Shown here: positions 24,618 through 52,687 of the stretch, piece by piece
Numbering within the stretch: position 1 is the first letter of the stretch
Layout of the letters: each line of letters begins with the position of its first letter
Source: Thermoanaerobaculia bacterium
GTDB lineage: Bacteria > Acidobacteriota > Thermoanaerobaculia > UBA5066
NCBI GenBank assembly: GCA_963816185.1
Contig: CAWFJJ010000001.1
Location: 32,001 to 96,000 of the forward strand
Direction: 5' to 3'
Length of the DNA stretch: 64,000 nucleotides
Position numbers and translations under genes: made by a program
The notes under the pieces: model-generated
The model's input: the letters and a program-made list of their open reading frames with translations, nothing else
What the model was told of the DNA's origin: nothing
Database searches by the model: none

Positions 24618-24744
24618 GCAGCGCGGCGACGGGCCGACAAACGGTGGCCCGGCCTCCCCGCCTCCTCCGACAAAATTTCGTCGCCCGCCCGGCGTTCGGA
24701 CCCGATTCGTGCCCGAACCAGTCGGATTCCGGCTCTGGAGCCCG

Positions 24745-24760: not shown

Positions 24761-24790
24761 AGCAGATCGGCACATTAGGAGGTTCATCTC

Positions 24791-25303: not shown

Positions 25304-25329
25304 ACGTCCTCCCTCTGCAAGCCCGATCC

Positions 25330-25361
25330 AAGAGCCCCCGAGACGGGGGCTCTTTTCTTTT
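25330..25361 (+). terminator. Rho-independent terminator after major pilin
   Basis: AAGAGCCCCCG-AGA-CGGGGGCTCTT followed by TTCTTTT. Confidence 0.88.
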
Positions 25362-25381
25362 CCAGGCCTAGAATTGCCGCG

Positions 25382-33369: not shown

Positions 33370-34666
33370 GGGTGGCCCCCTGTTCGGCGATGACGGACGG
33401 TGGGAGCGTGAGGGCGAACCGGACGCGCCCCGCGGCGTTCGACGCGATCTGCACGTCTCCGCCGTGGCGTCGCGCGATCCCGCGGGCGATCGCGAGGCCG
33501 AGCCCGGTGCCGCGCGGACGCGTCGTGAAGAAAGGTTCGAAGAGGCACGGGACGGCGTCGGCCGGGACTCCCGGCCCGTCGTCTTCCACTTCCAGGGAAA
33601 CGGCGCCGGACCGGCGGCGGCAGACGAGGGAGACGCAACCGCCCCGGCCGGCCGCCTCGACGCCGTTGAGGACGAGGTTCAGGAGCGCCTGCTGGAGCTG
33701 GTGCGGATCGGCGTGCAGCACGAGTTCCTCGGGGGCCGAGCCCTCAACCGCGACGCCGCGAGCGTCGGCGTGCGCGCGAGCGAGCTCGACGACGTATCCG
33801 ACGAGCGTCGCGGCGGAAGTCGGAACCACCGTCGGAACTTTCGCGCCCGCGTAAGACAGGAAGTCCCCGGTGAGCGTCTCGAGGCGCCGGGCCTCTTCGG
33901 AGGCGATCGCGCAGAGGGGCTCAGCGGCGGGAGTCGCGCAGCCCTTGCGTCGCGCGAGGTCGAGCGAAGAGACGATCATCGCGATCGGGTTCCGGATTTC
34001 GTGGGCGATCGCCGACGAGAGCCGTCCCACGGCGGCGAGCTTCTCCTCCTCCACGAGCCGATCCCTTGCCATTCCAAGATCGAGTAGCGAGCCGGCGAGG
34101 CGCGCTCGTTCCTTGCGGAGCTCCGAGACGAGAATCGCCACGACCACGGCGACGACGACGTAGATGAGGGCGACGCTCGCCGCCTCGAACCACTCGGCCG
34201 TCGTCACCGGAGCGTGACTTCGTCCCCAGATGGCCAGCTTGAGGAACGTCAGGACGATCGCGACCGCGACGACGAGTGCGATCCCCGCGGGTGGCTTCCG
34301 GGCCGCGGCGGCGATGACGGGAAGCAGAAGGAGGGCCACGTAATGGCTGTGCTCCAGCCCTCCCAGGAGCGACAGGACGAAAGCGAATGCGACGTTGAGC
34401 CAAATGGAGGCGTCCGCCCACGCAGAGAGGGGCGCCGCCGCGGCCCCGCCGATCCACGTGAGCTCGAGCGCCTGCATCAGGAAACGGCCCAGGAGGACGA
34501 GAAAGAACAGGCGGGGCGGCGTCCCGAGCGCCGGACCGAAGACGAGATGGGCGACGACGATCCCTGCGAGCATCGTCATGTTCAAGAGAACGAGCCCTCC
34601 TTCCTGCCGGCGGAGGACGTCGGAAGCGGAAGAAGACGCGGAGGGTGCGGGAGGAGGATGAACCAA
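33347..34666 (-). CDS. Intramembrane-sensing histidine kinase (about 6 TM)
   Basis: Multiple N-terminal TMs with no periplasmic domain; AHEIRNP, NLVLNG, DDGPG, PFFTT and GTGLGL. Confidence 0.88.
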   Translation of the reverse strand: MVHPPPAPSASSSASDVLRRQEGGLVLLNMTMLAGIVVAHLVFGPALGTPPRLFFLVLLGRFLMQALELTWIGGAAAAPLSAWADASIWLNVAFAFVLSLLGGLEHSHYVALLLLPVIAAAARKPPAGIALVVAVAIVLTFLKLAIWGRSHAPVTTAEWFEAASVALIYVVVAVVVAILVSELRKERARLAGSLLDLGMARDRLVEEEKLAAVGRLSSAIAHEIRNPIAMIVSSLDLARRKGCATPAAEPLCAIASEEARRLETLTGDFLSYAGAKVPTVVPTSAATLVGYVVELARAHADARGVAVEGSAPEELVLHADPHQLQQALLNLVLNGVEAAGRGGCVSLVCRRRSGAVSLEVEDDGPGVPADAVPCLFEPFFTTRPRGTGLGLAIARGIARRHGGDVQIASNAAGRVRFALTLPPSVIAEQGATLGARAAG

Positions 34667-34744: not shown

Positions 34745-35884
34745 TCAGCCGGCGGCCGCCGGGACGGCGGGCCGCGCCGCCGCCGTCTTGCGCTTCTCGA
34801 CGAGCGCCTTGAACGCCTCCTTGTCGATCGCCTTCTCGAGCGCGTCGTCCGCTTCCACGAACGCCCCGACGACGAGGTCGGCGAGGTACTGGTCCATCCC
34901 GATCATCCCGGACGTGCGGCCCGTCTGGATGAGGGTCGTGATCATGCTCGTCTTGCCCTCCCGGATGCTGTTCGAGAGCGCGGAGGATCCGCGGAGCACT
35001 TCGAAAGCGGGGACGCGCCCGCCGCCTTTCTTCCTCAGGAGCACCTGCGCGACGACGGCCTTCAGCACCTCCGCGAGCACGGTCCGCGTCTGCTCCTGCT
35101 CCTCGGCGGGGAAGCTGTCGATGAGGCGGTCCACCGCCTTCGAGGCGGAATTCGTGTGGAGCGTCGCGAAGACCAGGAGGCCCGTCTCGGCCGCCTGCAA
35201 GGCCATCGACATCGTCTCGAGATCGCGCAGCTCGCCGACCAGGACCACGTCCGGGTCCTCGCGAAGAGCCGCCTTGAGCGCGCCGGCGAAAGTCGGCGTG
35301 TCGAAGCCGAGCTCACGATGCGAGATCAGCGACTTCTGGGGCACGTGGAGAAACTCGACGGGATCCTCGATCGTGACGATGTGAGAAGCGCGCGTGCGGT
35401 TGATCCAGTCGAGGAGGGCCGCGAGAGTCGTGGACTTGCCCGAGCCCGTCGGACCGGTCACGAGGACGAGTCCGCGCGGGACGCGTGCGACGTTCGAGAC
35501 GATCGGGGGCAGCCCCAGCTCCTCGATGCCGAGGACCTTCGGCGGGATCATGCGGAGGACGGCGCCCGACCCGTGCTCCTGGCGGAAGAGGTTCACGCGG
35601 AAGCGCGCGATCTTGCCCATGGCATAGGCGAAGTCCGCGTCGCCCGTCTCCTGCCAGTCCTTGAACGGCTTCTCGGGAGCGATCGGGCCGATGAGGCTCT
35701 CGTACTCCTCCTCGGTCAGCGTGCGCCACTTCAGCCTCTGGAGATCTCCGTCCACGCGGACGATCGGCGGCGACCCCACGGCGAGGTGAAGGTCGGAGGC
35801 TTTCTTGTCGACGACGATCCTGAGGAGCGTGTCGATCCGGTTCACGCCCATGTCCGAGGAGGAGGCTGGAGGCTGCTTCGTCAT
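34745..35884 (-). CDS. pilT: Type IV pilus retraction ATPase PilT/PilU family
   Basis: ASDLHL, RFRVN, GPTGSGKSTT, TIEDPVE, ALREDPD, GELRD, ATLHT and an AIRNLIRE-like ALSNSIRE. Confidence 0.92.
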   Translation of the reverse strand: MTKQPPASSSDMGVNRIDTLLRIVVDKKASDLHLAVGSPPIVRVDGDLQRLKWRTLTEEEYESLIGPIAPEKPFKDWQETGDADFAYAMGKIARFRVNLFRQEHGSGAVLRMIPPKVLGIEELGLPPIVSNVARVPRGLVLVTGPTGSGKSTTLAALLDWINRTRASHIVTIEDPVEFLHVPQKSLISHRELGFDTPTFAGALKAALREDPDVVLVGELRDLETMSMALQAAETGLLVFATLHTNSASKAVDRLIDSFPAEEQEQTRTVLAEVLKAVVAQVLLRKKGGGRVPAFEVLRGSSALSNSIREGKTSMITTLIQTGRTSGMIGMDQYLADLVVGAFVEADDALEKAIDKEAFKALVEKRKTAAARPAVPAAAG

Positions 35885-38406
35885 TCGAGGGCCTGCCTCT
35901 CGTCGGCGAGAAGCTTCTCGAAGGGCTCCTTCTTGAGCGCCTTCTCCATGGCGATCTCGGGATCCACCTTGCCGTCCTCGCAAAGCTTCATCAGCGACTG
36001 GTCCATGGTGACCATTCCGGCGCTTTGGCCGGTCTGAAGCTGGGACGGAAGCTGGTGCGTCTTGCCTTCACGAATCAGCGACGCCACGGCGGGTGTCGTG
36101 CGGAGGATCTCGAACGCCGCAACGCGACCCGCGAACCCGCGGCGCGGGAGAAGGACCTGGGACACGACCGCCTTCAAGGAGTCGGAGAGCATGACGCGAA
36201 CCTGGCCCTGCTGCCCGGCGGGAAACGAGCTGATGATGCGGTCGATCGTCGCGGGCGCATTCGTCGTGTGGAGCGTGCCGAGGACGAGGTGCCCCGTTTC
36301 CGAGGCGGTGATCGCGAGCGCGATCGTCTCGAGGTCGCGCATCTCGCCGACGAGGATGACGTCCGGGTCCTCGCGGAGCGCCGCCTTGAGCGCCCGCGCG
36401 AACGAAACCGTGTGATGCGGGACCTGGCGCTGGTTCACCATCGCTTCCTTGCTCGGGTGGACGAACTCCACCGGGTCCTCGACCGTGATGATGTGACAGG
36501 GGCGTGTCTCGTTGATGCGGTCGATGAGCGCGGCGAGCGTGGTTGACTTTCCGCAGCCGGACGAGCCCGTCACGAGGACGAGGCCCTGCGTGAACTTGAG
36601 GACGTCCGAGAGCGACGGCGGCAGCCCGATCTCCTCGATCGTCGGGATGGCCTTCGGAATGAGCCGGAAGCACGCGTCGAACCCGCCGCGCTGCGAGTAG
36701 AAGTTGGCGCGGAAGCGCCCGAGCCCCGGCAGCTTCAGGCAGACGTCGATCTGCCGCTCGCGCTCGAGCCTCTTCCATTCGCTCTCGTCGAGCACTTCGC
36801 GGATGAGCTGGGTTGCGCGCGCGCGCGTCATCGGAGGCGCGTTCACGGGCTCGAGGACGCCCTGCATGCGCAGATGCGGCACGAAGCCCGTCGCGAGGTG
36901 AAGGTCCGAGGCTCCGTGCTGGACCATGTCGGCGAGGAACTCGACGAGCCGCGCGTTCTGGTTGCCGGCCAGCTCGACGGTGGCCACCTCGGACTCGATC
37001 TCGGGAAGGGCGTCGCGGGCCTCGTCGCCGGAGAGCCTTCCCACGAGGCGGCGGGCGCGCTCGCGGACCGCCGGATCGAGCTGGGCCATCTGGACGACCC
37101 TCGAGCAGATCGTGACGACCTGCTGCTGGACGCGGGCCTCGGCCACCGCGAGCTTTCCCATCGCGTCGAGGATCTCGATCTGGACGTCGGGGCGCGCGAC
37201 GGCGCCCTTGAACGTGTCGAGAAGCGGCTGGGCGGCGCGCGCGTCGGCGAGCTCCCCGACCGCGGAGGCGGCCGCGATGACGAGCTCGGGGTCCTTGAGC
37301 GCCAGGAGAAGGCGTTGGAGGACCTCGTCGTTTCCCTGCCCGGTCCGCCCGAGCGTCTCGATGGCGCGCGTCCTCACCCAGAGGTCGGCGTCGTCCACGA
37401 GCTTGATCCACACGGGGAGCGCCTTGGCGTCCGCGAGAGCCAGCGTCATCTCGGAGGCGGCCTTCGCAAACGCGGGATCGGGATCCTTCGTGAGCAGAAG
37501 CAGCGCGTTCACGAAGCCCGGCAAGCCATCGCGGGCCGTCTCGACCGCGCGGTCCCGGACCCAGACGAACGCGCCGCGAAAATGCTCGAGGATCCGGCGC
37601 GCGATGAGATCCGGCGTGTAGGGCATGAGGAGATTCACGGCGCCGTGCCTCACGATCGCGTTTCCGTCCGCGAGAAGAGGCACGATCTCGGTCGTGTGAT
37701 CCTGCTTGGCGGAGGTCAGGAGGCGCTTGATCGCGGCGAACGACGCTTCCGCCACGCGTCCGCCTCCCGTCCGCGCCATCTGAAGAACGTCCGGGAAGTA
37801 GCTCTCGTTCGGGTTCTTCTCGAGGACCGCGAGCGCCGAGTAGCGGATCTCCTCGTTCTCGTCCTGCAACAGGGGGACGGCGAGGCTCGCCGCCACGGCC
37901 GCGCTGCCTTCGAAATTCATCTCGCTGACGGCCTTCAGGGCCTTCGCCCGCACGGCGGGATTCGTCGCGGTGAGCACCCGGCGCGCGATGTCGAAGGCCG
38001 CCTCGGCGGGAAGCTCCCGGGCGAGCTCCAGAGCGGCGAGGCGGGCATAGTCGTCCCCGCGGGAGCCGACCTCCTGCAGGAACGGGCCGAGCTGCGGCCC
38101 CGCGAGCTCCTTCAGGAAGCGCATGACGGCGCGCCGCACCGCTTCCGAGCGCGTCTTCAGGAGCGGAACGAGCGCTTCGAGCCCGGCGCGGTCGTGACGC
38201 CTCTTGAGGATCGCGAGACCCGCAGCCCGGATCTCGGGAATCGGCTCGAGCGCCGTCCAGACGATCCACCCGACGTCGGGCTTGACGATCGCGTGGAACT
38301 TCTCGAGGAGCTCCCTCTTGTTCTCCTCGCTCGTCCACTTGTGGTCTCGAAGCTGGGCGACGACGGCCGGCTCCGAGCGCAGGCCGCGCAGCTTCTCAAG
38401 GACCAT
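35881..38406 (-). CDS. HEAT-repeat-PilT fusion ATPase
   Basis: About 480 aa of HEAT-like repeats (LL.D....VR..A...L) followed by a complete PilT domain (ASDLHL, GSSGCGKSTT, TVEDPVE, ALREDPD, GTLHT, AVASLIRE). Confidence 0.88.
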   Translation of the reverse strand: MVLEKLRGLRSEPAVVAQLRDHKWTSEENKRELLEKFHAIVKPDVGWIVWTALEPIPEIRAAGLAILKRRHDRAGLEALVPLLKTRSEAVRRAVMRFLKELAGPQLGPFLQEVGSRGDDYARLAALELARELPAEAAFDIARRVLTATNPAVRAKALKAVSEMNFEGSAAVAASLAVPLLQDENEEIRYSALAVLEKNPNESYFPDVLQMARTGGGRVAEASFAAIKRLLTSAKQDHTTEIVPLLADGNAIVRHGAVNLLMPYTPDLIARRILEHFRGAFVWVRDRAVETARDGLPGFVNALLLLTKDPDPAFAKAASEMTLALADAKALPVWIKLVDDADLWVRTRAIETLGRTGQGNDEVLQRLLLALKDPELVIAAASAVGELADARAAQPLLDTFKGAVARPDVQIEILDAMGKLAVAEARVQQQVVTICSRVVQMAQLDPAVRERARRLVGRLSGDEARDALPEIESEVATVELAGNQNARLVEFLADMVQHGASDLHLATGFVPHLRMQGVLEPVNAPPMTRARATQLIREVLDESEWKRLERERQIDVCLKLPGLGRFRANFYSQRGGFDACFRLIPKAIPTIEEIGLPPSLSDVLKFTQGLVLVTGSSGCGKSTTLAALIDRINETRPCHIITVEDPVEFVHPSKEAMVNQRQVPHHTVSFARALKAALREDPDVILVGEMRDLETIALAITASETGHLVLGTLHTTNAPATIDRIISSFPAGQQGQVRVMLSDSLKAVVSQVLLPRRGFAGRVAAFEILRTTPAVASLIREGKTHQLPSQLQTGQSAGMVTMDQSLMKLCEDGKVDPEIAMEKALKKEPFEKLLADERQALE

Positions 38407-38733: not shown

Positions 38734-39483
38734 ATGATGAGCGTTACGTCTCCGGACTCTTACCCGCGACTCCGCACGCTTCGGCGCTCGCGGAGGGGGT
38801 TCAGTCTCATCGAGATGCTGGTCGTGGTCGCGATCATCGCGATCATCGTCATCCTCGGGGGAGGGGAGATCTCGAGGGCCTGGAAGCGCCAGAAGATGCA
38901 GAGCGCGGCCACCGACATCAAGGTGCTCTTTCAGAGGGCGCTCCCCGAGATGCAGCGCCGCAACATGCAGACCTTCGTCCAGGTCGGCCCTCACACGACG
39001 ACATCCGGAGCGAAATATCTGCCGATCTACCTCGTCGGCGATGCGGACGGGGACGGGGCCTTGGGCACGTTCTGCCAGAATCCGATCGCACCCGCCACAG
39101 GCTGTCCGGACCTCCTCATCGCCGAGTACGACATCATCGACGTGGGCAAGACGGGCGTCAGGGGTACGTCGGGCGTGGACCAGGAGTTCTGCTTGTCCGA
39201 GGTCGCCGTGGACCAGGTGGAATCCACGCTCTGGTCGGACAACAACACGAGCTGGAATAACCAGCGCGTCCTCATGTGCGACTTTCAGGGGCGGGCGATC
39301 GACACGCTCAGCGGCCGGCAGATCGCCGGGCCGGCCACGCTCGTCTTCACGCACACGGGCGTCGTCAACGGAGGTCTGGACCCCCCGACGCGGTACGTGC
39401 TCAGCATCAACCCGGTCTGGAGCGTCCGGGTCGCGAAGCAGATCAAGGACTCGACGAACGCGTGGGTGACGCAAAATGGCTGA
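38734..39483 (+). CDS. Minor pilin FimT/FimU-like
   Basis: SRRG|FSLIEMLVVVAII; first gene of a four-minor-pilin plus pilY1 operon. Confidence 0.82.
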   Translation: MMSVTSPDSYPRLRTLRRSRRGFSLIEMLVVVAIIAIIVILGGGEISRAWKRQKMQSAATDIKVLFQRALPEMQRRNMQTFVQVGPHTTTSGAKYLPIYLVGDADGDGALGTFCQNPIAPATGCPDLLIAEYDIIDVGKTGVRGTSGVDQEFCLSEVAVDQVESTLWSDNNTSWNNQRVLMCDFQGRAIDTLSGRQIAGPATLVFTHTGVVNGGLDPPTRYVLSINPVWSVRVAKQIKDSTNAWVTQNG

Positions 39484-40051
39484 GAGCGGCGCCCCTCGCG
39501 ATCGCCGGACACCAACCCGCTCGCGCCGCGGCAGCAGCTTCGTCGAGGTCCTCCTCGCCATGACCATCATGGCGCTCGTCCTCGTCGGCATCCTCCAGAT
39601 GTTCTCGGTGTCGCTCATCATCAACAAGGGCGCCGCGGCCCGCACGCAGATGCTCTTCAAGTGCCAGCAGGTCGTCGAGAACCTCCGCTGGTACTACTAC
39701 GTGACGTCGAACAACATGGCCGCGCCCACGAACACCGACATCCCGGCTCTCGGGGCGGCCACCAAGAATCTTCCATATGTGGCGACCGACCCAGGGTGGG
39801 ATTTCTGGGGTCCTGACGGAGCGAACGTGATCGAGAGGGAGAACGGGCCGTACAAGATCAGCTACACGCTGGTGAACGACAACGGTGTCGGCGGACAGCA
39901 GCTGAACAACGGCACCAACGTCTGGGTGATCACGGTCTCGGCGGTGCCGACGGACGTCCCTGGCGCCGTCGGCGCCTCGCGGTATCTGGGAATCGGAACG
40001 AACGGCGGCGGCAAGAGAGTGGATTATGTGGCGCAGTTCACGCAGCAGTGA
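39476..40051 (+). CDS. Minor pilin PilV-like
   Basis: SRRG|SSFVEVLLAMTIMALV; position in the operon. Confidence 0.78.
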   Translation: MAESGAPRDRRTPTRSRRGSSFVEVLLAMTIMALVLVGILQMFSVSLIINKGAAARTQMLFKCQQVVENLRWYYYVTSNNMAAPTNTDIPALGAATKNLPYVATDPGWDFWGPDGANVIERENGPYKISYTLVNDNGVGGQQLNNGTNVWVITVSAVPTDVPGAVGASRYLGIGTNGGGKRVDYVAQFTQQ

Positions 40052-41483
40052 CCTCCGGCCTCGCCGCGGCCCCGCCCGTGGCTTCACGCTTCTCGAGGCG
40101 ATGGTGTCGCTGCTTCTCCTCGTCATCGTCCTCATCGTGGCGATGACGATGCTTTTCCAGATGCGCGCCTTCGCAGAGCGGCAGCAATACTTCATGCTCC
40201 CCCGCCAGGCGGCGCGCCGGGCCGCCGACTATCTCTCGTTCTATTTCGCGGGCGCCTCCGACGCCAACAACTACGTCAAGGACGCGCCCAGGAGCCCGAA
40301 CGCGCTGATCACGTATTACAACCTGAACAACAACCTGATACAGGCCTCGTACAACAACCTCGGGTGTCCCGACAGCTCCGGCTCCACCACCTGCACCGAG
40401 CCGGGAAACGGTGCCCGCGTCATTCCGGCGAACCCGCCCGCCATCCCGACGGCGATCAATTCCACCAAGTTCGGCGACATTGGAACCGACGTCATCACGA
40501 TCGTGTCGCCGTCCAATCCCGGCCGGTACCTGGTCTTCCCGAATTTCCCGCCTCTCGGTCCAAACGTCGACTTGTATTTCAACTTCCGGGTCGGCTGCGG
40601 AGGCGGTTGTGGCGCGCCCCCTTTGCCGGCGTGCCCGGCAGCGAGCGACACGGACAACATGAACGCCTTCAAGGCGGCTGCCGGGGACGCCGGCGCTGCT
40701 GGAAGCGCTCTCCTCATGCTCGTCGACAAGGGCGGGGCCTGGTCCTACCTGCAAATTCCGGCCGCCGGCTATGTGGCATCAGCCTGCAACGACGTGAATG
40801 GCAAGAACATCCACGTGAAAGTCGACACGGCCTCGACGACGCTTCCCGCGCCGCCGAACCCGACCGGAGCCGCCGTTTCGAATTTCGTGGATCCGGTCTA
40901 TCTGATCACCGGACTTCAGGTGATCTCCTTCCGCATCCTGACCGACGCCGTCGACGGGCTTCCGAAGCTCCAGCAGAAGATCGGACTCTTCGATCCGGCG
41001 ACCGACAACCCCGGCGTCGCCTTCACGAACGTGATGGAGAACGTGGAGGACCTGCAGGTCGCGTACATGTATGCGCGGCAGGCCGCCGAGGGAGGGGGAG
41101 GGCCTCCGGACGGCTCTCTCGTCTGGAACACGGCATCCCAGACGATCAAGTCGACCAGTCCCGGATGTGGCACGCTGCCCGCGCCCGCGTGCGACACGCA
41201 CGTGCCCTTCCAGGCGGGGCCCAACGGCGCTGCTCCGCCTCTCGACATCTCGAACGTGATCGGGGTGCGGGTCTCGGTCACGGGGCGGTCCCCGCTCCTT
41301 CCGCTCGCGGCCCAGAAGATGACGGACGTCAACGTCAACAATCCCCTGGCATCCACGACGAGCCAGCATTTCCGTCCGAGATCCGAGGATCACGACGTGA
41401 CGGATCCGCCGCAATACGATCTCTTCGACCACTATCGCCAGACGACGACCCTGCTGCTCCGCAACCGGATTCCGGGAGGATGA
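40026..41483 (+). CDS. Minor pilin PilW-like (large, Cys-rich)
   Basis: ARG|FTLLEAMVSL; NVEDLQVAY, VIGVRVSVTGRS and TTTLLLRN, typical of PilW. Confidence 0.82.
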   Translation: MWRSSRSSDLRPRRGPARGFTLLEAMVSLLLLVIVLIVAMTMLFQMRAFAERQQYFMLPRQAARRAADYLSFYFAGASDANNYVKDAPRSPNALITYYNLNNNLIQASYNNLGCPDSSGSTTCTEPGNGARVIPANPPAIPTAINSTKFGDIGTDVITIVSPSNPGRYLVFPNFPPLGPNVDLYFNFRVGCGGGCGAPPLPACPAASDTDNMNAFKAAAGDAGAAGSALLMLVDKGGAWSYLQIPAAGYVASACNDVNGKNIHVKVDTASTTLPAPPNPTGAAVSNFVDPVYLITGLQVISFRILTDAVDGLPKLQQKIGLFDPATDNPGVAFTNVMENVEDLQVAYMYARQAAEGGGGPPDGSLVWNTASQTIKSTSPGCGTLPAPACDTHVPFQAGPNGAAPPLDISNVIGVRVSVTGRSPLLPLAAQKMTDVNVNNPLASTTSQHFRPRSEDHDVTDPPQYDLFDHYRQTTTLLLRNRIPGG

Positions 41484-41487
41484 TGAG

Positions 41488-42132
41488 ATGAAAGATCGCG
41501 GCAGCGCCCTCGTCTCGGTGATCCTCGTTCTCCTCGTCCTCACGATCGTGGGAGTCGGCATCGCGTACTTCACGTCGATGGAGGACCGGCTCTCGGGAAA
41601 CACGCGGATCACGAAGGCCGGCTTCTACGCCGCCGACGCGGGCCTCAGGCGCGGCGAGGCCCTCCTGGGCGAAGTCATCAATCTCGACCCGCCGACCTGC
41701 GGTGCGCAGAGCCTGTCGCAGCTCCTCGCGGCGCGCACGGTGGGTTCGAACCTCAAGGTGCCCGGCGGGGGATACGACGCGCTGTCGCTCGACCTTTCGA
41801 CGCTTCCGGCCAACACGGTGGCGTGTCTCGGGGCGGACGCCCAAGCCTACACGAACATCCAGATCCCGCGGCCCGCGGGGGTTTCCGTCGTGGACAGGGT
41901 CTCGTACTCGCTCTACCTCCGCAACAACGTGGATGACCCGCAGGGCACGGACGTCGCGGACACGGACAGCATCGTGAACCTCATTTCCGTCGGAACGGTG
42001 CGGCTCGCGGCGGGCATGATCGTGACGAAGATCGTCGAGGAGCAGCTTCTCCTGACGAGCGGTGGGCCTTCGACCGGTGCCCAGAAAGACGTGAACGCCG
42101 GCGGAACGAACACCATCACCGGAAAGACGTGA
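41488..42132 (+). CDS. Minor pilin PilX-like
   Basis: DRG|SALVSVILVLLVLTI (no E5), RLSGN and AGFYAADAG, the PilX N-terminal pattern. Confidence 0.82.
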   Translation: MKDRGSALVSVILVLLVLTIVGVGIAYFTSMEDRLSGNTRITKAGFYAADAGLRRGEALLGEVINLDPPTCGAQSLSQLLAARTVGSNLKVPGGGYDALSLDLSTLPANTVACLGADAQAYTNIQIPRPAGVSVVDRVSYSLYLRNNVDDPQGTDVADTDSIVNLISVGTVRLAAGMIVTKIVEEQLLLTSGGPSTGAQKDVNAGGTNTITGKT

Positions 42133-42134
42133 TC

Positions 42135-42165
42135 GGATGACCGAGTGGATGACCGAGTGGATGAC
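42135..42165 (+). repeat. 12-bp tandem repeat (GGATGACCGAGT x ~2.5) between pilX and pilY1
   Basis: GGATGACCGAGT-GGATGACCGAGT-GGATGAC read directly from the sequence. Confidence 0.8.
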
Positions 42166-42171
42166 AAAGCC

Positions 42172-45100
42172 ATGACGAAACCTCGCTGCCCCATCACCCT
42201 TCCCGTCACCGTGAGGAAGGCGTGCGCTTACCTGCTCCTCTTCGTCATGGCCTTCGGAGGGGCCGGCACCCTCCAGGGCGCGACGCGAACCGAAGGGTTC
42301 GACCCGCTCCGCCAGATCACCGCACAGCTTCTCCGCGCGAACTTCCTCATCCTCCAGGACGTCAGCGGCTCGATGCGCTGGGACGTGCAGGCGCACTCCC
42401 TCATCGAGGACGAGGATTCCGTCGGCCGGCTCGTCTGGGCTGTCTCGTGCCTCGACTCGAACCCCGGCCCGACGCCGACGCCCACGCCAACGCCGACCGA
42501 AACGCCGACGGAAACGCCGACCTTTACGCCGACGTCCACCGTGACGTTGACACCCACCGTGACGCCGACCTTGACGCCGACCGAGACGCCCACCTCGACG
42601 GTGACACCGACGGTGACGCCGACGGCGACGCCGAGCCAGACGCCGACCGAGACGCCGACGCCGACGGTGACGCCGACCTTTACGCCGACGATGACGCCGA
42701 CGGTCACGCCGACGGTGACGCCGACGGGCACCGCGACGAACACAAAAACGCCGACGATGACGCCGACCGTGACGCCGACGTTCACGGTGACGTTTACGCC
42801 GACGAAGACGCCGACGGCGACGATCACGCCGACGATCACGCCGACTTCGACGAAGACGCCGACGAGGACGCCTTCGAGCACGCCGACGAAGACGCCGACG
42901 AAGACGCCGACGCGCACGATCACGAATACGCCGACGAAAACGCCGACGCCGCTGCCGACGAATACGCCGACGGTCACACCGACAAGCACACGGACGCCGA
43001 CGAGAACGCCGACGCCGACGATCACGCCGACGTTCACGATCACGAATACGCCGACGGTCACGCCGACGGCGACGAGAACCCCGACGAATACGCCGACGCG
43101 AACGCCGACGATCACGCCGACGGTGACGCCGACGTTCACGGTGACGAATACGCCGACCGTGACGCCGACTCCGACGATCACGCCGACGTCGAGTCCGACG
43201 CGGACTCCGACCAATACGCGGACGCCGACGGCGACGCCGACGGTGACTCCGACGGTCACTCCGACGCGAACCCCGACGGTCACGCCGACTTTCACGAAGA
43301 CGCCGACGGTCACCCCGACGTCCACGCCGACGTCCACGCGGACGCCGACGGTGACGCCGACGTCCACGCCGTCGCCCACTCCCACGTCCACGCCGACGCG
43401 GACGCCGACGCCCAAGATCAACGAGCTCACCATCCCGAGGAACCCGCTCGTGAAGCCGGACGAACGGCAGCCGGTCCTGGCCTCGGTGCGGCCTCACCGC
43501 CTGCCCGAGCCGGTCGCGCTGATCGCGTGGAACGGATCAGGTCATGGGTCGCTGAACATGGCTTCGGATTCGGATTCCTTCGAGGCCCCTCTGCCGCGCG
43601 AGCCGCACGGCGTCGCGATGGGGATCGCGGCTTTCATGGCCGTCGCCACACCGACGCCGGTCCCGAATCGCAGAGTCCCTGAAGCTAAGGCGACACCTTC
43701 ACCTTTGCCGACGCCATACCCGTGGGAAACTCCCGTGCCGGGCTTCACCCCGACTCCGCGTCCGGCGGACTCCCAGGGATGTCACCGCTGGCAGTACGCC
43801 CTCCGGTGGGAGCAGCCTTCGCGCCTCGCGATCCTCAAGAACGTCCTTGGCGACTCCGTGACGACGTACACGGCCTACACGGCGCCGGGGAATGGGAACC
43901 AGAACGATTGGCCGGATCCGACGTCGTATAACCCGTCGGGGATCGGCCACAGCGAGATCCCGAGCGCATGGAATTACAAGGCTCCGTCAGGGGCCGGCCC
44001 CACCGTGGGGGGACCGTGGGCCCACAACTGTGACGATCCCGGCGCCCCGCCCTGCGCGCTGCTGGGTGAACAGCCCGGAATCTCCTACTCCAAGGGAACC
44101 TGGGACTGGCCGGACCCGAACTCGAACGACCTGAAGTCGAACTACGACCCCGCCTGGCCGCCGTTTTATCATCCGGGGGCCGACACGACGGGATCCAGCG
44201 TTTACGAGGAGCCGACGTTCCCTCTCGTCCTTTTCCCCGCACCCTACGGAACGGCCGGAACCTACGACGGCTGGGCCTGGACGTTGAACTACGGTTACGG
44301 AGCCGCCCCGAACAACGACGTCATCTACGGGCCCGACCCGGGTCCGCCTTTCACGGTGATGGACGAGACGACGGACAATTCCTGCGGACTGGGATGCGGC
44401 AACTCCATTCCCGGATTCACAGGAACGCCGATCTCCTTCCCGGTGAGCTGGACGAACGCGGCCGGTGTCAACTTCACGGCCGAGACGCAGGACCCCAAGA
44501 CGAACGATGACAAAGTGACCCTCTTCAACGATCCGACGAAAGGCTCGAACCAGCCCTCCTGGAACCGGAACGGCGCCCGGGACGTCGTGGGCACGACGAA
44601 AGACGTCGTGAACTGGGGCCTCATGACGTTCTTCTCCGACGGGTACGCCCCGGTCTATGACCCGAAAGTCAACGTCGTCACCGTCGACACGGGCCCGGGC
44701 GACGTCACGGCCATCGAAGGATACATGCGCCTCCACTACTACAACTCGCTGCCGAACCCCGGCCTCGGAGTCGGCGGCGGCACGCCGACGAAAGGCGCCA
44801 TCGGCGCGGCGGACGGTTCCCTGAGCGCGACGTGGGACGTGGACCCGAAGAAGGCCTGCAATCGGCCCTATGGCGTCATCCTTTGCACCGACGGCCAGTC
44901 GAACGTCACGAATACGGGCAGCCCGGTTGACAAGGAATGGGACAAGACGTCGACGCCGTGCGCCCCGGACGCGGACGGGAGCGCCTTCCCCAACTTCCCT
45001 CCGGGCGCCGCGGAAGCCATGTATCTGAACGCGCATCTCGCGGGGCCCGGGGACGCCGTCGTGCGAACCCGTACGTTCGCGATCGGAATCTCGACCGACA

Positions 45101-47568
45101 TCTCGCGCTGCGAGCTGAACCGCATCGCGTACCGCGGCCGCACCGACGCGAATGCACCCTTCCTGGACGCCGGGTTCACCCTTTTCGATCCAACCGACCC
45201 GCCGGCCCTGCAAGGTGACGCCCGCCTCCCGCACATCGACCCGAGCCCCGACGTCGCCGGAACGACGGTTCCCACGAATGAGAGCGGGCCTGGAGTCCCG
45301 CCGGCGCCCAACCGGTTCGGTCCGGACCAGACACCGCCGGACACCCTCGACTATGCGTTCTTCGCGAACGACGCCCGGGCGCTCTCTGAAGCATTCCAGG
45401 CTATTGTGAACGGTTCGGCGCGGGGCGACTACACGACGACCCCCCCCGTTTCGGGAGCCGCCGTCGGCGTCGGGAGCACGGTCGTCCTGACCTCGGCGCA
45501 GTATCCTCTCTGGCGCGGCCACATCAAGGCGCTTGACACGTCAGGCGTTTTCGCATCGCCACCCGGGCCCATCGTCGACCTCTGGGACGCGGGAAGCGTT
45601 CTGGCGGCCCCGTCACAGCCGTGGCAGCCGAATCCCGACGGAACGGCCGGGCACCCGCGCCGGCAGCTCTATACGTGGAATCCGGTGAGCGGCGCCCTGG
45701 TCGAGATCAAGGTGGGCAACGAGGCAGCCATCAACACCGCTTGTGGCTCGGCCTGCACGAGCACGCCGATCACGTCCGCGATCGTCGACTTCATGCGTGG
45801 CATCGACACGCGGGATTTCAATTTAGTCAATAACGCGTTGGTTCCCAACCCAAACAAGGGTTTCCCGCGCCATTGGCTGCTGGGCCCCTCCATCAACGTG
45901 ACGCCCGCGATCGTGGGCCCCGCGCAGACATACTTCCAGACGGGCAACGTGGTGGATCACAAGCCCTTCGAGAGCACATACGCGAACCGGCACAGTCTCG
46001 TGTGGATCGGCGCCGACGACGGATTCCTGCATGCGCTCGACCTCGGAAGCAAAGATCACCCTGGAGACGGCTCCGAGGTCATCGGCCTGCTGCCCCCGAA
46101 CCTGATTCCGAACCAGGTCACGCTCTACGACACTTTCAACGACCCGGACCAGCAGGTCAGGACGGATACCGGACAGAACTCCGGGTTCCGGTTCGACCAG
46201 CACACCTGGGGCGTCGCGAGCTCGCTGAGATTCGCGGACGTGTGGTTCCCGTCGTGTGCTCCGAGCGGCTGCTACAAGACGGTCGGATTCCTGACCGAGG
46301 GGCCGGGGGGCAACTTCGTCGCCGCGATCGACATCACCCACCCCTATCCAGGCCGCACGCCCGCGGACCCCAATTACCCCGCGGACCCGAACTTCAACCC
46401 GGCGAAACCGGTCGACGTGCTCTGGACGAAGACCTCGTCGGACTACACGGACCTCTTCGGCTCCTGGAGCGTGCCCGCTGTTGCGAACGACACGTTCACG
46501 ACGAGCAAACTGACATTCGGCGCCGGCATCAATCCGGACAGCCTCTACCCCGTGGGCTCCAAGACGGAGCAGCCCGCGAACATCTTCGTCGTCGATCCGA
46601 CCAGCGGCGCCCTCCTGTCGACGACGGCGATCGCGCCCGTCGCGTCGCCGGAGACGACTTCGCTCGTTGGCCACCAGACGTTCACCGACTCGATCTTCTT
46701 CCAGACGGACGCCCTGGGCTTCCAGAACGACAACCTCGCGAATCTTTCGCTCCAGGGCGACGAGAACGGACGTGTCAACGCGCTCTATGGAGACTGGACG
46801 AGCCCGACTTCGAAGGTCCTCATCGACCTCAACGCGGTTTCGAAGGCCTCCTTGGGGGTGGACAGCCCTCAGCCTCTCTACTACTCGCCGTCGGCCAACG
46901 GATTCGGAACGCTCGGCACCCAGATCTTCGCTCTCGCAAGCGGCAGCTTCTACGAAACGAGCCCGACCGTCTCGGGCTGGAACGTGAATCGGACCGCCCC
47001 GAAGCCGCCGACAGGCTCGGGCTTCCCGGACGATCTTCCCGTCTTCGTGCCGACCCTCTTCGTCGCGGTGAATCCCAACAAGATCACGGATGGCGCCTTC
47101 GGCACGACGCTCGACTCGGCGCACGTCATCAGCAAGGTCATCGGCGGCGAGACGACCGGGATCCCGCTTCAGCTTACCGACCCGACGTACATCGCGGGCG
47201 TTCACACGCGCCTCGGGATTCATTCGCAGATCACGTCTTCGCCGCTCCTCGTGGTGGACTCGTCTTCGACGAAGCAAAATGTCTTCTTCACCGTCTTCGA
47301 CCCGGACTTCGGGTGCAACGGCTTCTCGTACGTCGTCAACGTGGAGTTCACGATCTCCGCGACCTCCGTGCCGGGGTTCAGCGCGACGACCGTGATCCCC
47401 GCCGCGCCAGGCGCTGCCGCCGGCTTCGTCGTAACGGACCAGGGTGCATTCATCGGGCAGAGCGGCGTCGGAAAGGGCGAGTCGACGCTCGTTCAGATCC
47501 ATATCCCCACACCCCAGCTGCCCGGCCATCCGAACTTCCGTCTCGGGTGGTGGAAGGAGCAGAAATAG
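42172..47568 (+). CDS. pilY1: PilY1-like pilus tip adhesin (vWA + beta-propeller) with Thr-Pro repeat insertion
   Basis: Signal peptide; [40 protein letters not shown] and TFAIG (vWA); [22 protein letters not shown] and [10 protein letters not shown] (PilY1 propeller); follows pilX. Confidence 0.88.
42469..43413 (+). repeat. Intragenic low-complexity repeat encoding about 315 aa of (TPT-x)n
   Basis: Recurrent ACGCCGACG units translate to TPTxTPTx (x = V, I, F, R, K, N, S, E). Confidence 0.95.
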
Positions 47569-47703: not shown

Positions 47704-48939
47704 GTGGTCGCGGGGGCGAGGCCGTTCCTGCGTGAGAGAGGGTTCTCCCTACGAGAGCTCACTCTCACGCTCCTTCTCGTGGGCGCCGTCATCGTCGTCG
47801 CGGTCAGGCTGATCGACCTCCGGACGAAGCTCCTCGTCGTCGAGAAGGACGCTCCCGGACTCGCCGGCGTTCTGGACGTCGCCGAGCGCTCCATCTCGCG
47901 GGATATGGAAGGCGCTTTTCGCGGCGGCTTCGCCCTTCCCGACGCCATTTCCTCTGCCGAGGACAACACCTCCGCCACGGGCATCACCTCCTACCGTGAC
48001 GCGGGAGGAACGGTCGCGGTTCGGATGGGCACCGACCAGCTCCGGCTTCGCGGAGTGATCCGGTCGCCCCGCCTCGCCGTCGAGCCGCAAGGGGGGGACG
48101 GGACGAGCGTTCGCGACCGGATTCTGCGAAACGCTTCTTCCGTTCCTCTCCAGGCGGGCACGCCGCCCGAGGACCGCGACGCCGCGAAGAATCTCCAATC
48201 CGTGATCGAGCATCTCGGGGACCCTTCTCTTCGCTCGAAGCGGTTCTTCCTCGTGACCGATTCCGCAGGGCGTTACGCCGTCTCCGTCGTGCGCGCCTGG
48301 AATTCTCCTCCGGGTCCCGCTCGAACCATGGAATTCCTCCTCGACTTCACGGATCCGGACGCCGTGAGCTTGAACCCCGGCGGCGAGGCGGCTGCGGCCC
48401 GCTCTCTCTCCGAGATCGTGACCGCGGGAGTTCTGGACGACCTCGTGTGGTTCGTCGCGCAGGGGCCGGAGGGGCGGCTCCCCGATTACGACGCGGCGAT
48501 TGATCCGCCGTCGATGAAGTTTCCGCACCCGTATCTGGCCGTGGCGGCTTTCGCGGGAGGGGGCCGCTGGGAGATCACGCGCGTCGGAGAGGACGTCGAA
48601 GATCTTCAGGTGGCATGGGAGCTCTCCGGCGATGGAGGCGTGCTCACGTGGCGGGCCGACGTTGCCGGGAGTCCGGCTCCGAGGGCGAACGAGGTCTCGG
48701 ATTCCGCCGGGAAGCCGCTCCTCGTCGCGCTGAAAATCGCGATGACGGCCAAGGCGGAGCACCGCTATGTGCGCGGGGACGGCCCCCAGCCGTCGGTCGC
48801 TTTCGCCCCGCTCCTGAACGCTCCCGCACCCGACCTGCACGGCGCCGGGCCCGTGGGATGGAGCCCCGACGAGAGCCGGCGCATCCCGTTCGAGCGCACG
48901 ACGCGAGAGGTCGTCATCCCGACAGCTCTCGGACGGTGA
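47704..48939 (+). CDS. Second PilW-like prepilin with degenerate N-terminus
   Basis: ERG|FSLRELTLTLLLVG; GTDQLRL, EDVEDLQVAW and VALKIAMTAK. Confidence 0.65.
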   Translation: MVAGARPFLRERGFSLRELTLTLLLVGAVIVVAVRLIDLRTKLLVVEKDAPGLAGVLDVAERSISRDMEGAFRGGFALPDAISSAEDNTSATGITSYRDAGGTVAVRMGTDQLRLRGVIRSPRLAVEPQGGDGTSVRDRILRNASSVPLQAGTPPEDRDAAKNLQSVIEHLGDPSLRSKRFFLVTDSAGRYAVSVVRAWNSPPGPARTMEFLLDFTDPDAVSLNPGGEAAAARSLSEIVTAGVLDDLVWFVAQGPEGRLPDYDAAIDPPSMKFPHPYLAVAAFAGGGRWEITRVGEDVEDLQVAWELSGDGGVLTWRADVAGSPAPRANEVSDSAGKPLLVALKIAMTAKAEHRYVRGDGPQPSVAFAPLLNAPAPDLHGAGPVGWSPDESRRIPFERTTREVVIPTALGR

Positions 48940-49928: not shown

Positions 49929-51290
49929 ATGCCCGCGGAGATTCTGCTCGTCGAGGACCGCGAGTCGCTGCGGGCGATGCTCGCGGAGACGCTGACGCGA
50001 GAGGGCTACAGCGTGGAAGCTGTCGCGACCGGCGAAGAGGCGCTGCGCCGGCTTGCGGAAGGCCGCCGTTACACGCTCGTCCTGACGGACTTCAAGATGC
50101 CGGGCGCCGACGGTCTCGCCGTGCTCCGGGCGGCGACGGCGTCCGATGCCGCCATCCCTGTCGTCGTCCTCACGGGATTCGGCACCGTCGAGACGGCGGT
50201 CACGGCGATGAAGATGGGAGCGGCCGACTTCCTGAGCAAGCCGGTCGATCCCGACCTCCTGCTGCTCCTCGTCGCGCGACACGTGCGCGCCCGGCGCTCG
50301 GCCGTCGCGCACACTCTCCTCGCCGCCGAGGCGGGCCTCACGGGAATGCCCGAGATCGTCGGCACGTCGCAGGCGCTCGCGGAGGCCCTGGAGAGGGTCC
50401 GGCTGGCCGCCGCCTCGGACGTCACGGTCCTTCTGACGGGCGAGTCCGGCACGGGCAAGGAGCTTTTCGCGCGCGCGATGCACGCGCTCTCGCCGCGCGC
50501 GCCGGGACCGTTCGTCGCCGTGAACGTCGCCGCTCTGCCGGAAAGCCTCGTCGAGAACGAGCTCTTCGGGCACGAGCGCGGCGCGTATACCGGCGCGAGC
50601 GAGCGGCGCGCGGGGCGTTTCGAGCTGGCCGACGGGGGAACTCTCTTCCTGGACGAGATCGGTGAGCTGCCGTCCGCGGCGCAGGCCAAGTTCCTGAGGG
50701 CGGTCGAGGAACGCACATTCCTCCGCGTGGGCGGCACGGTGCCGATCGCGGTGGACGTCAGGATCGTGGCGGCGACGAACCGTGAGCTCGCGTCTCTCGT
50801 CAAGGCCGGGGCGTTCCGCGAGGACCTCTTCTATCGTCTCGACGTTTTCCCGGTACGCCTGCCGCCGCTCCGCGCCCGGAAAGAAGACATCCCCGCGCTC
50901 GCGAACGGCTTCGCGGCCTCGGCGGCGCGCCAGGTGAAGAAGAAGGTGCCCACCTTCTCGCCGGCCGCCCTCGAGAGGCTCGCGGCGCACGATTGGCCGG
51001 GGAACGTGCGCGAGCTTCGGAACGTCGTGGAACGGGCCGTGCTCCTCGCAACCGGAGAGGTCATTCGGCCGGCGGACGTCGTCGTCGGCGTCCCGGGCGA
51101 GACCCAGCCCCGCTATCCCTCGCTCGACGGGACGCTCGAAGAGACGGCGGAAAGGTGGCGCCGGGCGGGCGAGGCGGCGCGCATCCGGCGTGCGCTCGAG
51201 GCCACGGGAGGCGACAGGACGCGCACAGCCGAGGAGCTGGGCGTGCCGCTCCGGAAGCTCTCCCAGAGGATGAAGGAGCTGGGGATCTAG
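49929..51290 (+). CDS. Sigma54-dependent response regulator (PilR-like)
   Basis: REC domain, GESGTGKE, ENELFGHERGAYTGA, FREDLFYRL, WPGNVREL and HTH; no adjacent kinase. Confidence 0.92.
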   Translation: MPAEILLVEDRESLRAMLAETLTREGYSVEAVATGEEALRRLAEGRRYTLVLTDFKMPGADGLAVLRAATASDAAIPVVVLTGFGTVETAVTAMKMGAADFLSKPVDPDLLLLLVARHVRARRSAVAHTLLAAEAGLTGMPEIVGTSQALAEALERVRLAAASDVTVLLTGESGTGKELFARAMHALSPRAPGPFVAVNVAALPESLVENELFGHERGAYTGASERRAGRFELADGGTLFLDEIGELPSAAQAKFLRAVEERTFLRVGGTVPIAVDVRIVAATNRELASLVKAGAFREDLFYRLDVFPVRLPPLRARKEDIPALANGFAASAARQVKKKVPTFSPAALERLAAHDWPGNVRELRNVVERAVLLATGEVIRPADVVVGVPGETQPRYPSLDGTLEETAERWRRAGEAARIRRALEATGGDRTRTAEELGVPLRKLSQRMKELGI

Positions 51291-52658
51291 GCGCCCAACG
51301 CCTCGAGCACGTGGACGACCTCTTCGTCCTCGGATTCCGCGACGCTCCGGAGGTCGAGGAGGACACGGCCGCCTTCGATCCGACCGATGACTGGCGGCTC
51401 TCCGGCGCGGAGCGCGGCGGCGAGACCGTCGGCCGAGTACGAGGGATGCGAAAGAGCCACGGCCTTCGAGGGCAACGTGGATTCGGCGCCCGAGCCGCCG
51501 CCAGCCGTCGCGACGGAGTCGACCGCCGCCGCCGTGAAGCCCGCCGCGCGCGCGGCCGCCGTCAGCGCATCGGCCCGCCGCGCGAGGTCTCGGAGCGGGG
51601 TCTCGAGCATCCGGTGAAAGGGAATCTCGAGGCGCCTCCCGGAAAGATGCAGGTCGAGCGTGGCGGCGAGCGCGCCGAGGGCGAGCTTGTCCGGGCGGAG
51701 GACACGGGCGAGCGGGTTCGCCGCGGCGCGTGCGACGAGATCCTTCTTTCCGATCAGGATTCCCGCCTGCGGGCCGCCGAGGACCTTGTCGCCCGAGAAG
51801 CAGACGAGGTCCGCGCCCGCGTCGAGGGCCTCGAGAGGAACGGGCTCTTCCGAGAGAGCCGGATCAGTGAAGCGCACGGGGGTCCCCGCGCCGGCGTCGT
51901 AGATCACGGGAACGCCGCGTGCTTGCGCGAGCGATCCGAGCGCGGAGAGGGAAACCTCTTCGGTGAAGCCCACGATTCGGTAGTTCGAGGGCCGGACCTT
52001 GAGAATGACGCCCGCGCCCGCCTCGAGCGCCTCTTCGTAATCCCGAAGCGTCGTCCTGTTCGTGGTGCCCACCTCGTGGAGCGAGGCGCCGCTCTTCGCG
52101 AGGATGGAGGGCACTCGGAAATCTCCGCCGATCGCGACGAGCTCGCCGCGCGACACCGCCACTTTCCGGCCGTTCGCGAGCGTGTCGAGGGCGAGGAGGA
52201 GCGCCGCAGCTGCGTTCGTGACCGCGAGGGCGTCGAGGTCCTCCCGATCCTTCGCGAAGAGCGCGAGGAGGAGCGGTCGCACATGCTCGCCGCGTCGCCC
52301 GCGAGTCCCGGCCGAAAGGTCGTATTCGAGCGTCGAGAAGCCCGCGGCGCGGCCCGCCGCGGCGACGGCCTGAGGCGCGAGCGGAGCGCGCCCGAGGTTC
52401 GTGTGCAGGAGGACGCCCGTCGCATTCACGACGCGCCGGGGCCCGACCGGAGCCCTCTCCTCGAGCGCCCGGGCGGCGGCGGCCAGAATCGTCTCGGTCG
52501 CGTCGCCGTCTCGGGGACCCTCGCGCGCGCCACCGGTCGGCCGCCTCGCGGAGGGCCTCCTTCGCGCGGGCCCGACCGTGCCGGTCCGCCAGCTCTTTCC
52601 CCGAAGCGCTCTCGAGGAGGCGGTCCATGGCGGGAGGCCGGGGAGGATCGGGATCCAT
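51287..52658 (-). CDS. selA: L-seryl-tRNA(Sec) selenium transferase (frameshift near 52520-52530)
   Basis: VVNATGVLLHTNLGRAPL, SRGELVAIGGDFR, EVGTTNRT and FSGDKVLGGPQAG (PLP Lys). The N-terminal domain (PPAMDRLL...HGRARAKEALR) lies in another frame. Confidence 0.85.
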
Positions 52659-52687
52659 GCGAGCCGAATGTAGACTACTTTCCGCCG

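Follow-up and report, generated by a model that had tools for sequence, protein, structure and literature searches.

The N-terminal domains of PilY1-family proteins decide the adhesion targets of type IV pili and the way in which the cell senses touch. These are von Willebrand factor type A (vWA) domains (PMC9210963, PMC7541494). Pseudomonas aeruginosa PilY1 has a Cys-rich vWA domain, two residues of which, Cys147 and Cys152 (a C-x4-C pair), are important in surface signalling (PMC9210963). Acinetobacter ComC carries a finger in its vWFa domain, and deletion of residues 166-256 impairs adhesion, twitching and DNA uptake; insertions arose independently across variants, and in one relative the metal ion-dependent adhesion site, MIDAS, is surrounded by disordered elements (PMC10374093). 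Here we analyse a stretch of 64,000 nucleotides, hereafter the window, from an uncultured Thermoanaerobaculia bacterium of the Acidobacteriota (contig CAWFJJ010000001.1, positions 32,001 to 96,000). It encodes a PilY1-family protein whose vWA-like region holds, between two Cys, a loop of more than 400 residues, most of which is a strict alternation of Thr with one other residue (x).

The window protein resembles P. aeruginosa PilY1 in being encoded after minor pilins, in a C-terminal domain that is homologous at the profile level (structure 3hx6) and in an N-terminal region with the DxSxS, Thr and Asp motifs. It differs in being too diverged for Pfam and in its loop, no comparable Thr-rich loop being reported in the available part of the P. 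aeruginosa work (PMC9210963). As in ComC, the vWA scaffold of a pilus tip protein carries an insertion specific to its lineage. The ComC finger, however, folds as an antiparallel beta element that has about 90 residues and a Tyr-rich motif, whereas the insert described here is 4-6 times longer and of low complexity, alternates Thr with other residues and is bracketed by Cys. Domain A1 of von Willebrand factor (VWF) likewise combines a vWA fold with Thr/Ser-rich O-glycosylated segments and one long-range disulfide in force-bearing adhesion; its linkers tune ligand affinity and its disulfide protects the domain from unfolding (PMC9084892). The VWF disulfide encloses the domain and leaves the mucin-like segments outside, whereas here a putative disulfide would enclose the mucin-like segment itself. 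The Pro-Thr (PT) linkers of bacterial cellulases and Ser/Thr-rich extracytoplasmic disordered regions are alike in their alternating Pro-Thr composition, and their traits (extended, O-glycosylated, protease-protected) may by composition extend to the window run (PMC5939190, PMC12041528). Those segments join domains or form tails and are tens of residues long, whereas the window case is a closed in-domain loop of more than 400 residues, with Pro at about half of the non-Thr positions. Lineage-specific, function-bearing inserts in PilY1-type vWA scaffolds are already known. Our literature search, with subscription journals and bioRxiv supplements outside its reach, came upon no account of a Thr-rich loop in any PilY1 protein. 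A recent survey of myxobacterial PilY1 proteins (PMC13190605) does not contain the terms disordered, low-complexity, insertion, threonine or repeat. A low-complexity loop of 440-540 residues inside the domain and beside the metal site is well past the inserts in the literature searched.

The PilY1-family gene and its insert

The gene (Table 1) is a single open frame of 1807 codons counted from the first GTG, with a third-position G+C content (GC3) of 0.86; its likely start codon is the ATG at 42172, residue 10 on this count. As the sequence-only reading had proposed, profile matches and gene order identify the product as a PilY1-family type IV pilus tip protein. The minor-pilin genes directly upstream match the N_methyl motif in three cases and PilX_N in the fourth, along with pilin families of NCBIfam, and minor pilins precede the tip-protein homologue in six of six related loci checked. 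A protein search returned 53 homologues. Profile A1, in which the window protein is included, matches the PilY1 C-terminal domain 3hx6 with an E value of 5e-16, and profile A5, made from 26 relatives, does so with 9e-23; PF05567 matches 19 of the 26, among them P0050, which is linked to the window protein at E 7e-123. The A5 alignment spans the part of 3hx6 that holds the propeller calcium-binding loop, which in PilY1 controls pilus extension and retraction. Some searches weigh against the assignment. At E up to 0.01 neither the whole window protein nor any of five pieces of it matched a Pfam or NCBIfam family, relaxing the limit to E 10 added just two matches of chance level among the pieces, and the C-terminal 722 residues gave no match to the PDB by phmmer. 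The whole-library search found only 220 cluster representatives at E up to 1e-3, so that the proteins make up a small, diverged PilY1 subfamily. Our comparison set comprised 34 related genome loci (L001-L034), all in metagenome-assembled genomes of Acidobacteriota, many of them titled Thermoanaerobaculia or Holophagales.

The sequence-only reading had described a vWA domain split by a Cys-bracketed Thr-Pro loop, and its coordinates and residue counts agree with the frame. Strand, Cys, Thr-rich run, Pro-rich segment, Cys and vWA motifs follow one another in one frame: DVSGSM begins at residue 72 (nucleotide 42358), C102 (42448) is the last residue of LVWAVSC, C546 (43780) is the first of CHRWQY, and SRLAILK begins at residue 559 (43819). 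The two Cys are 444 residues apart, with 443 residues between them. The same arrangement recurs in every insert-bearing sequence (14 of 14: the window, the ten loci L001-L007, L009, L011 and L023, and the database proteins P0009, P0018 and P0040), each having exactly two Cys between strand and helix and the whole insert between these two. The two Cys are 436-538 residues apart in the main clade, to which the window belongs, 450 in L011 and 214 in L023. The first Cys lies 26 residues past the GS of the strand motif in 13 of the 14 sequences and 47 residues past it in L023, and the second lies 11-12 residues ahead of PSR in the main clade. The flanks are conserved too: a Trp-containing stretch precedes the first Cys, with the Trp and the Cys invariant in 13 of 13 aligned N-terminal fragments, and an aromatic-alternating stretch (e.g. 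HRWQYALRW) follows the second.

Relatives without the insert have 48-196 residues between DxSGS and PSRL, usually with a Cys pair near the end of the segment. In most of them this pair, at the insert site, ranges from C-x2-C to C-x37-C; examples are C-x2-C (L010), C-x4-C (L029, L013, L014), C-x6-C (L028), C-x7-C (L017), C-x18-C (L021), C-x30-C (L032) and C-x36-C (L012). The run thus appears to have grown inside an older Cys-closed loop. The claim of a Cys-bracketed insert is borne out by the position of the run exactly between the two Cys and by the short Cys-x(2-37)-Cys loop in uninserted relatives, and C102 and C546 probably form a disulfide. It weighs against this that the pair is not universal: among 32 family proteins, 20 have two or four Cys, nine an odd number and three none. 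The strand-to-helix segment also harbours unrelated inserts in other members. P0142 has a PA14-like stretch (GDDGFRVFLWD) and then a Thr-Pro linker of about 210 residues there (residues ~60-560, with four Cys), and other relatives hold Cys-rich repeats or beta-rich stretches of about 250 residues; in P0150 and L025 a Thr-Pro linker lies ahead of the strand instead. The segment is thus a hot spot for insertions, with the Thr run as one filling among several.

The surrounding region retains the residues of a metal site. D72, G75, S76, T880, T882, D916 and G917 are invariant in eight of eight aligned members, four insert-less ones among them, and the middle Ser of DxSxS is Thr in four of the eight. 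A canonical vWA domain has its MIDAS Thr about 70 residues after DxSxS and its Asp in the TDG strand. In the window protein the MIDAS residues are present (DxSxS, the Thr in GGGTPT, the Asp in CTDGQSN) at a spacing far from canonical owing to the inserts. In family profiles, the part running from VNWGL to TDG aligns with the complement factor B vWA domain (1q0p) at weak E values of 0.0018-0.01. The description of the N-terminal region as vWA-like rests on the motifs, this marginal match and the published vWA N-domains of PilY1, and from sequence we infer that residues 66-77 are the vWA strand beta1. Several observations count against so firm a picture. The factor B match is weak and covers only the stretch from beta2 to TDG, Pfam VWA matches just one of 26 relatives (E 0.004) and VWA_2 two of eight (E 0.18), and beta1, a hairpin of the two arm segments and the proximity of the Cys are all proposed from comparison. 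An alignment of the DxSGS strand itself to factor B was discarded; it scored about 1-2 bits, and factor B has two neighbouring DxSxS-like strings. Between the first helix and VNWGL, residues 570-821 make up a second variable stretch, which has many Trp/Pro/Gly motifs and exceeds its counterpart in loop-less relatives by about 100-130 residues; opposite it, P0049, P0050, P0052 and P0053 show alignment gaps relative to the window clade.

The public gene calls give a different picture of the protein, and they raise the alternative that the run is mis-assembled or joins two genes, the real protein starting past it. The database entry for the window (P0002, 1372 aa; 43450-47568) begins at residue 436 of the frame, past the run. 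For L001-L006 and L011 the public protein is an exact C-terminal part of the frame that starts 411-542 residues after the DxSGS strand. All eight checkable cases (the window and these seven loci) thus lack the N-terminus and start after or inside the run, the strand is present in only three of the 47 closer matches (P0002-P0048), and a search with residues 10-105 matched only two proteins. Further points on the side of an artefact, and against a single gene, are that in L027 (10187-11338) and L030 (5577-5966) the strand is out of frame with the remainder, the shift lying inside the run, and that the L008 contig begins exactly at the loop end, as expected if assemblies break in the repeat.

The frame is nevertheless unbroken from signal peptide to stop in the window, L001, L002, L004-L007, L009, L011 and L023. 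The L003 contig starts within the gene, with strand, run and remainder still in one frame, and P0009, P0018 and P0040 hold strand, run and vWA motifs in one chain. Ten independent assemblies giving one frame and similar lengths argue against mis-assembly. The called starts vary by locus and would strip a secreted pilus protein of its signal peptide and DxSGS strand. The probable signal peptide (residues 10-46) passes from a basic stretch through a hydrophobic one to LQGA and contains the sole 19-residue hydrophobic window of the whole protein. In uninserted relatives the strand precedes PSRL by about 50-90 residues within a single gene and is part of the called protein, the public protein of two such relatives beginning upstream of the strand; the N-terminal 60 residues are the best-conserved part of the family and adjoin PSRL in these relatives. 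Frame breaks are found in the run-less L022 and L034 as well, for which reason we read the frameshifts of L027 and L030 as assembly noise, real inactivation being possible. One frame in the window, ten related loci and three database proteins upholds the earlier view of a single continuous gene. From these frames, one gene with an in-loop insert is highly probable and the artefact extremely improbable. The annotation problem exposed here is that public calls drop the signal peptide and the metal-site strand in eight of eight checkable cases, so that the architecture is almost invisible to protein-level searches.

Composition and evolution of the threonine run

Thr accounts for 47% and Pro for 24% of residues 103-423. 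Thr stands at 95% of alternate positions without a single phase break, a regularity that far exceeds chance, and ACG makes up 81% of its codons. The x positions are Pro in 47% of cases and hydrophobic in about a quarter, and the run has 18 Lys and Arg against five Asp and Glu. The sequence-only reading had spoken of TPTx repeats; the Thr/Pro-rich run itself stands, but its unit is a strict Thr-x dipeptide. A weaker period of 22 residues corresponds to the 66-nt row of Tandem Repeats Finder, which reported periods of 12, 24 and 66 nt across 42467-43414. The DNA repeats are degenerate, no exact repeat of at least 27 nt being found within the run. This Thr/Ser/Pro-rich low complexity, downstream of a signal-peptide-like N-terminus, is the composition of mucin-like segments and PT linkers. 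Strict Thr-x runs of at least 12 units are specific to the PilY1 gene, with 61 inside PilY1 spans and none outside in the 656,516 bases scanned.

Two long antisense open reading frames (ORFs) overlie the repeat (41335-43497 and 42228-43433, both on the minus strand), with Arg-rich and Val-Gly-rich translations; they mirror the repeat itself and might be taken for genes by a gene caller. We abandoned GC3 as a guide to the coding strand within the run, the sense frame and one antisense frame both having a value of 0.90.

Between the run and the second Cys lies a segment of another kind. Residues 426-545 are 20% Pro, and residues 424-545 are non-repetitive, with a hydrophobic patch of 13 residues and motifs common to the main-clade members. 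Pfam gave no family match to the segment. A PEP-CTERM-like sorting signal, suggested by PEP/PREPH and the hydrophobic patch, was rejected, as no NCBIfam model matched and the element is internal.

To place the run in the history of the family, a quick LG+G4 tree was built from the PSRL-to-C-terminus part of 34 rows. The run occurs in two separate places, in the window clade together with L011, and in L023, L027 and L030. The latter clade is sister to the loop-less L028 and L029, and L023 shares its flanking genes with L029, in which the site is C-x4-C. Forcing the 13 run-bearing rows together cost 175.8 log-likelihood units (approximately unbiased (AU) test, p 6.5e-53), the group having been named after the tree was seen. 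With two separate run-bearing clades, no fewer than two gains or losses are needed. Among the 10 main-clade sequences analysed, run length is 329-427 residues, with 95-98% Thr/Ser in phase and no phase breaks; the other positions are Pro in 23-47%, with 11-19 Lys and Arg against 3-6 Asp and Glu. The basic bias extends to 13 sequences (11-24 against 0-6).

Close relatives reveal how the run changes. L004 and L009 are 92% identical in DNA downstream and 82% in the loop. At the residue level their identity is 0.956 at the Thr phase, 0.594 at the x phase, 0.943 in the post-run segment and 0.919 in the downstream 600 residues. Change at the x positions is four to five times as fast as elsewhere in the protein. 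Four further pairs show a similar trend of Thr phase against x phase, with the post-run segment in step with downstream identity. That segment is 91-94% identical in the three closest pairs and 70 and 81% in two more distant ones, about equal to or above the downstream 600 residues. When one partner was shifted by 2-22 residues, x-phase identity fell from 0.49-0.65 to 0.04-0.43, which indicates that the run alignments are in register. In the three comparisons among L002, L004 and L009, loop indels measure 6 or 18 nt in 10 of 10 cases, not all of them independent events. By these alignments, Thr is strongly constrained, the x positions drift almost freely and length shifts by whole Thr-x units.

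The expectation that loop length would vary among orthologs through repeat slippage fared unevenly. Variation is plain, with a Cys-Cys spacing of 436-538 against 214 residues and indels of 6 or 18 nt between close relatives; fast slippage is weakened by the degenerate DNA repeats, the lack of exact repeats of at least 27 nt pointing to length change that is evolutionary and not an obvious high-frequency switch.

These patterns bear on a reading in which a PT-type linker merely grew by unit duplication in a tolerant loop and has no function of its own. The hot-spot character of the segment between beta1 and helix alpha1, with its unrelated inserts elsewhere in the family, would suit such passive expansion, as would x positions nearly free to drift, the variable length and a DNA that is a degenerate repeat of 6, 12 and 66 nt. 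Yet Thr is kept at 95-98% while x positions differ by 35-50% in the same comparisons, none of the 10 main-clade sequences has a run outside 329-427 residues, the basic bias holds throughout, and the run arose or was retained in two clades that the AU test does not join (p 6.5e-53). We consider passive expansion quite unlikely.

The strict alternation could also be that of a folded fibrous element, with beta strands stacked as a solenoid or ribbon into a rigid stalk. A strict two-residue alternation marks a beta strand with a single uniform face, beta structure is favoured by Thr, Val, Ile and Phe, a weak 22-residue period is present, and P0009 and P0018 hold Pro-free stretches of 19-21 residues. 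In the window run, however, 48 of the 74 spacings from one Pro to the next are of four residues, and no Pro-free stretch exceeds nine residues. Moreover, the x face drifts near-neutrally, unlike a packed core, and indels of a single dipeptide are tolerated. A fibrous element is very improbable, and the beta-solenoid reading of the run was dropped on Pro spacing and near-neutral x drift.

Proposed working of the loop

Our best explanation as a whole, a stapled, extended, adhesive loop at the pilus tip, is an evenly balanced proposition, and its parts differ in strength. A disulfide between C102 and C546 would form in the periplasm and staple the base of the loop, letting the vWA-like domain fold as in uninserted relatives despite the insert. 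It would cancel the entropic cost of the long loop and keep the loop, when pulled, from unzipping the domain. The run would stay unfolded, with Pro at mostly every fourth residue keeping it extended; from its composition, an unfolded and extended run is quite probable. The conserved post-run segment, being as constrained as the core, would probably pack against the domain or a partner.

O-glycosylation of the run Thr would make the chain stiffer and less open to attack by proteases. Glycosylation stiffens PT linkers, which have an extended form (PMC5939190), and in streptococci Ser/Thr-rich extracytoplasmic disordered regions are O-glycosylated and thus shielded from proteolysis (PMC12041528). 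By analogy with such segments the window run may be glycosylated, a possibility that we put a little short of an even call.

Elsewhere in the window, two GspG/PilA-type pilin genes are followed by a gene for a 762-aa protein with about 11 hydrophobic segments (24024-27670, plus strand). The last ~70 residues of this polytopic membrane protein (25382-27670) give weak matches, with E values of 1e-9 to 1e-5, to YfhO and to glycosyltransferases of the PgfM type, and it is a possible candidate for a pilus-linked O-glycosylation enzyme. It speaks against glycosylation that no glycosyltransferase is linked to the tip-protein gene, the sole candidate being this one, about 15 kb away, with a match of only ~70 residues.

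With its base stapled, the loop could be a thin, basic tentacle of polymer that surrounds the metal site at the extreme tip of the pilus. Its first contact with anionic surfaces or polymers might be weak, multivalent and independent of sequence, and it might pass the load to the stapled arm beside the MIDAS site. The capture radius would widen by several nanometres or more, up to a ceiling of about 80 nm when fully stretched. A random-coil scaling law gives a radius of gyration of the loop near 5-7 nm. The contour length of 443 residues is about 159 nm at 0.36 nm per residue (PMC11891296), and a closed loop reaches at most about half of that, ~80 nm. The N-terminal vWFA domain of PilY1 lies at the ultimate tip of the pilus, and a bulky fusion to superfolder green fluorescent protein (sfGFP) interferes with the function of PilY1.3, perhaps because passage through PilQ is blocked (PMC7541494). 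A thread would still be able to pass the secretin, where a folded domain of equal mass might not. The net positive charge and the near-neutral x drift fit the role of a sequence-independent polymer. As the main role of the loop, the adhesive tentacle is tentative, a somewhat doubtful reading with some appeal.

The same loop, glycosylated or not, could instead serve as a steric shield or gate that covers the metal-site face and the tip against proteases, phages and premature binding until tension or ligand displaces it. The insert directly follows the DxSGS motif, and near-neutral x positions would suit a sequence-independent role here as well. In Acinetobacter baylyi ComC, disordered folds are described as a shield about the MIDAS motif (PMC10374093); O-glycosylated linkers reduce VWF A1 affinity (PMC9084892), and glycosylation of pilins guards against pilus phages (bioRxiv 10.1101/150227). 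An inert cover, however, would need neither the consistent positive charge nor the quarter of x positions that are hydrophobic, and other clades hold binding-type modules (the PA14-like domain) at the insert site. A shield is unlikely in our estimate. The constant basic bias places the adhesive tentacle slightly above it, although the computations do not separate the two and the data do not distinguish adhesion from shielding, a point that weighs against our explanation.

A bolder form of the adhesive reading, which we think improbable, takes a densely O-glycosylated, disulfide-closed lasso, kept by selection, to be the working surface of the tip, the loop itself being adhesin and force sensor. 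If true, it would give the tip a reach of tens of nanometres and many weak contacts to anionic surfaces or polymers, with tension led into the metal-site arm, and the drifting x face would allow a quick change of surface chemistry. Such a device would have evolved twice in Acidobacteriota, the thread being the sole large addition to pass the secretin.

Whatever its role, the loop bears a signature of selection in which Thr is fixed while neighbouring positions drift, and natural loop-less relatives, one of them with the same flanking genes, are usable as controls. Together they form a natural experiment on how a disordered, possibly glycosylated loop with a base disulfide affects vWA folding, adhesion and secretin passage.

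Features and gene neighbourhood

Table 1. Features of the tip-protein gene and its immediate neighbours, in window coordinates
Feature	Position	Strand	Remarks
PilY1-family gene	42145..47568	+	open frame; 53 homologues; family profiles match 3hx6
Probable Sec signal peptide, residues 10-46	42172..42282	+	cleavage site placed by eye
Strand and DxSGS motif, residues 66-77; proposed vWA beta1 and MIDAS	42340..42375	+	D72, G75, S76 invariant
First arm segment GRLVWAVSC, ending in Cys102	42424..42450	+	Trp and Cys conserved
(Thr-x)n run, residues 103-423	42451..43413	+	321 residues
Post-run conserved non-repeat segment, residues 424-545	43414..43779	+	motifs LPRNPL, LPEPVA, hydrophobic patch, then TPTP
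Cys546, second arm segment and proposed helix alpha1	43780..43851	+	P558, S559, R560, K565, N566, G569 invariant
Second variable stretch in vWA-like region, residues 570-821	43852..44607	+	alignment gaps in relatives
Remaining vWA-like motifs (T880, D916, TFAIGIS, up to GDYTTT)	44608..45441	+	T880, T882, D916, G917 invariant
C-terminal PilY1-type domain	45442..47565	+	profiles A1 and A5 match 3hx6
Four prepilin-type minor pilin genes	38734-39483, 39476-40051, 40026-41483, 41488-42132	+	directly upstream
Downstream 411-aa protein with pilin-like N-terminus (GFSLRELTLTLLLV; GFSLRELTL and hydrophobic helix)	47704..48939	+	

The 411-aa protein encoded downstream of the tip protein has a counterpart in L004 that matches N_methyl at E 1.9e-4, and the window copy has no Pfam match. 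Its position is kept in L001, L004 and L017, and the database protein P0024 contains it as a read-through fusion. A DsbA-like gene is present within the window, a point in favour of our explanation. Scans of the window for tRNA genes and Rfam families found nothing. A histidine kinase and a sigma-54 response regulator are encoded upstream of the pilus genes (32029-34666, minus strand). A second sigma-54 response regulator follows downstream (49929-51290, plus strand) and is kept in L001, L004 and L017. A 721-codon ORF (51287-53452, minus strand) has a SelA (selenocysteine synthase) domain at residues 341-704; its N-terminal 340 codons have no family match and may reflect an over-extended start in GC-rich DNA. 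Divergent from the minor-pilin operon lies a gene for a PilT/PilU-family ATPase of 841 aa (35881-38406, minus strand). About 480 of its N-terminal residues are HEAT repeats, a fusion also seen in L001, L004, L011 and L017.

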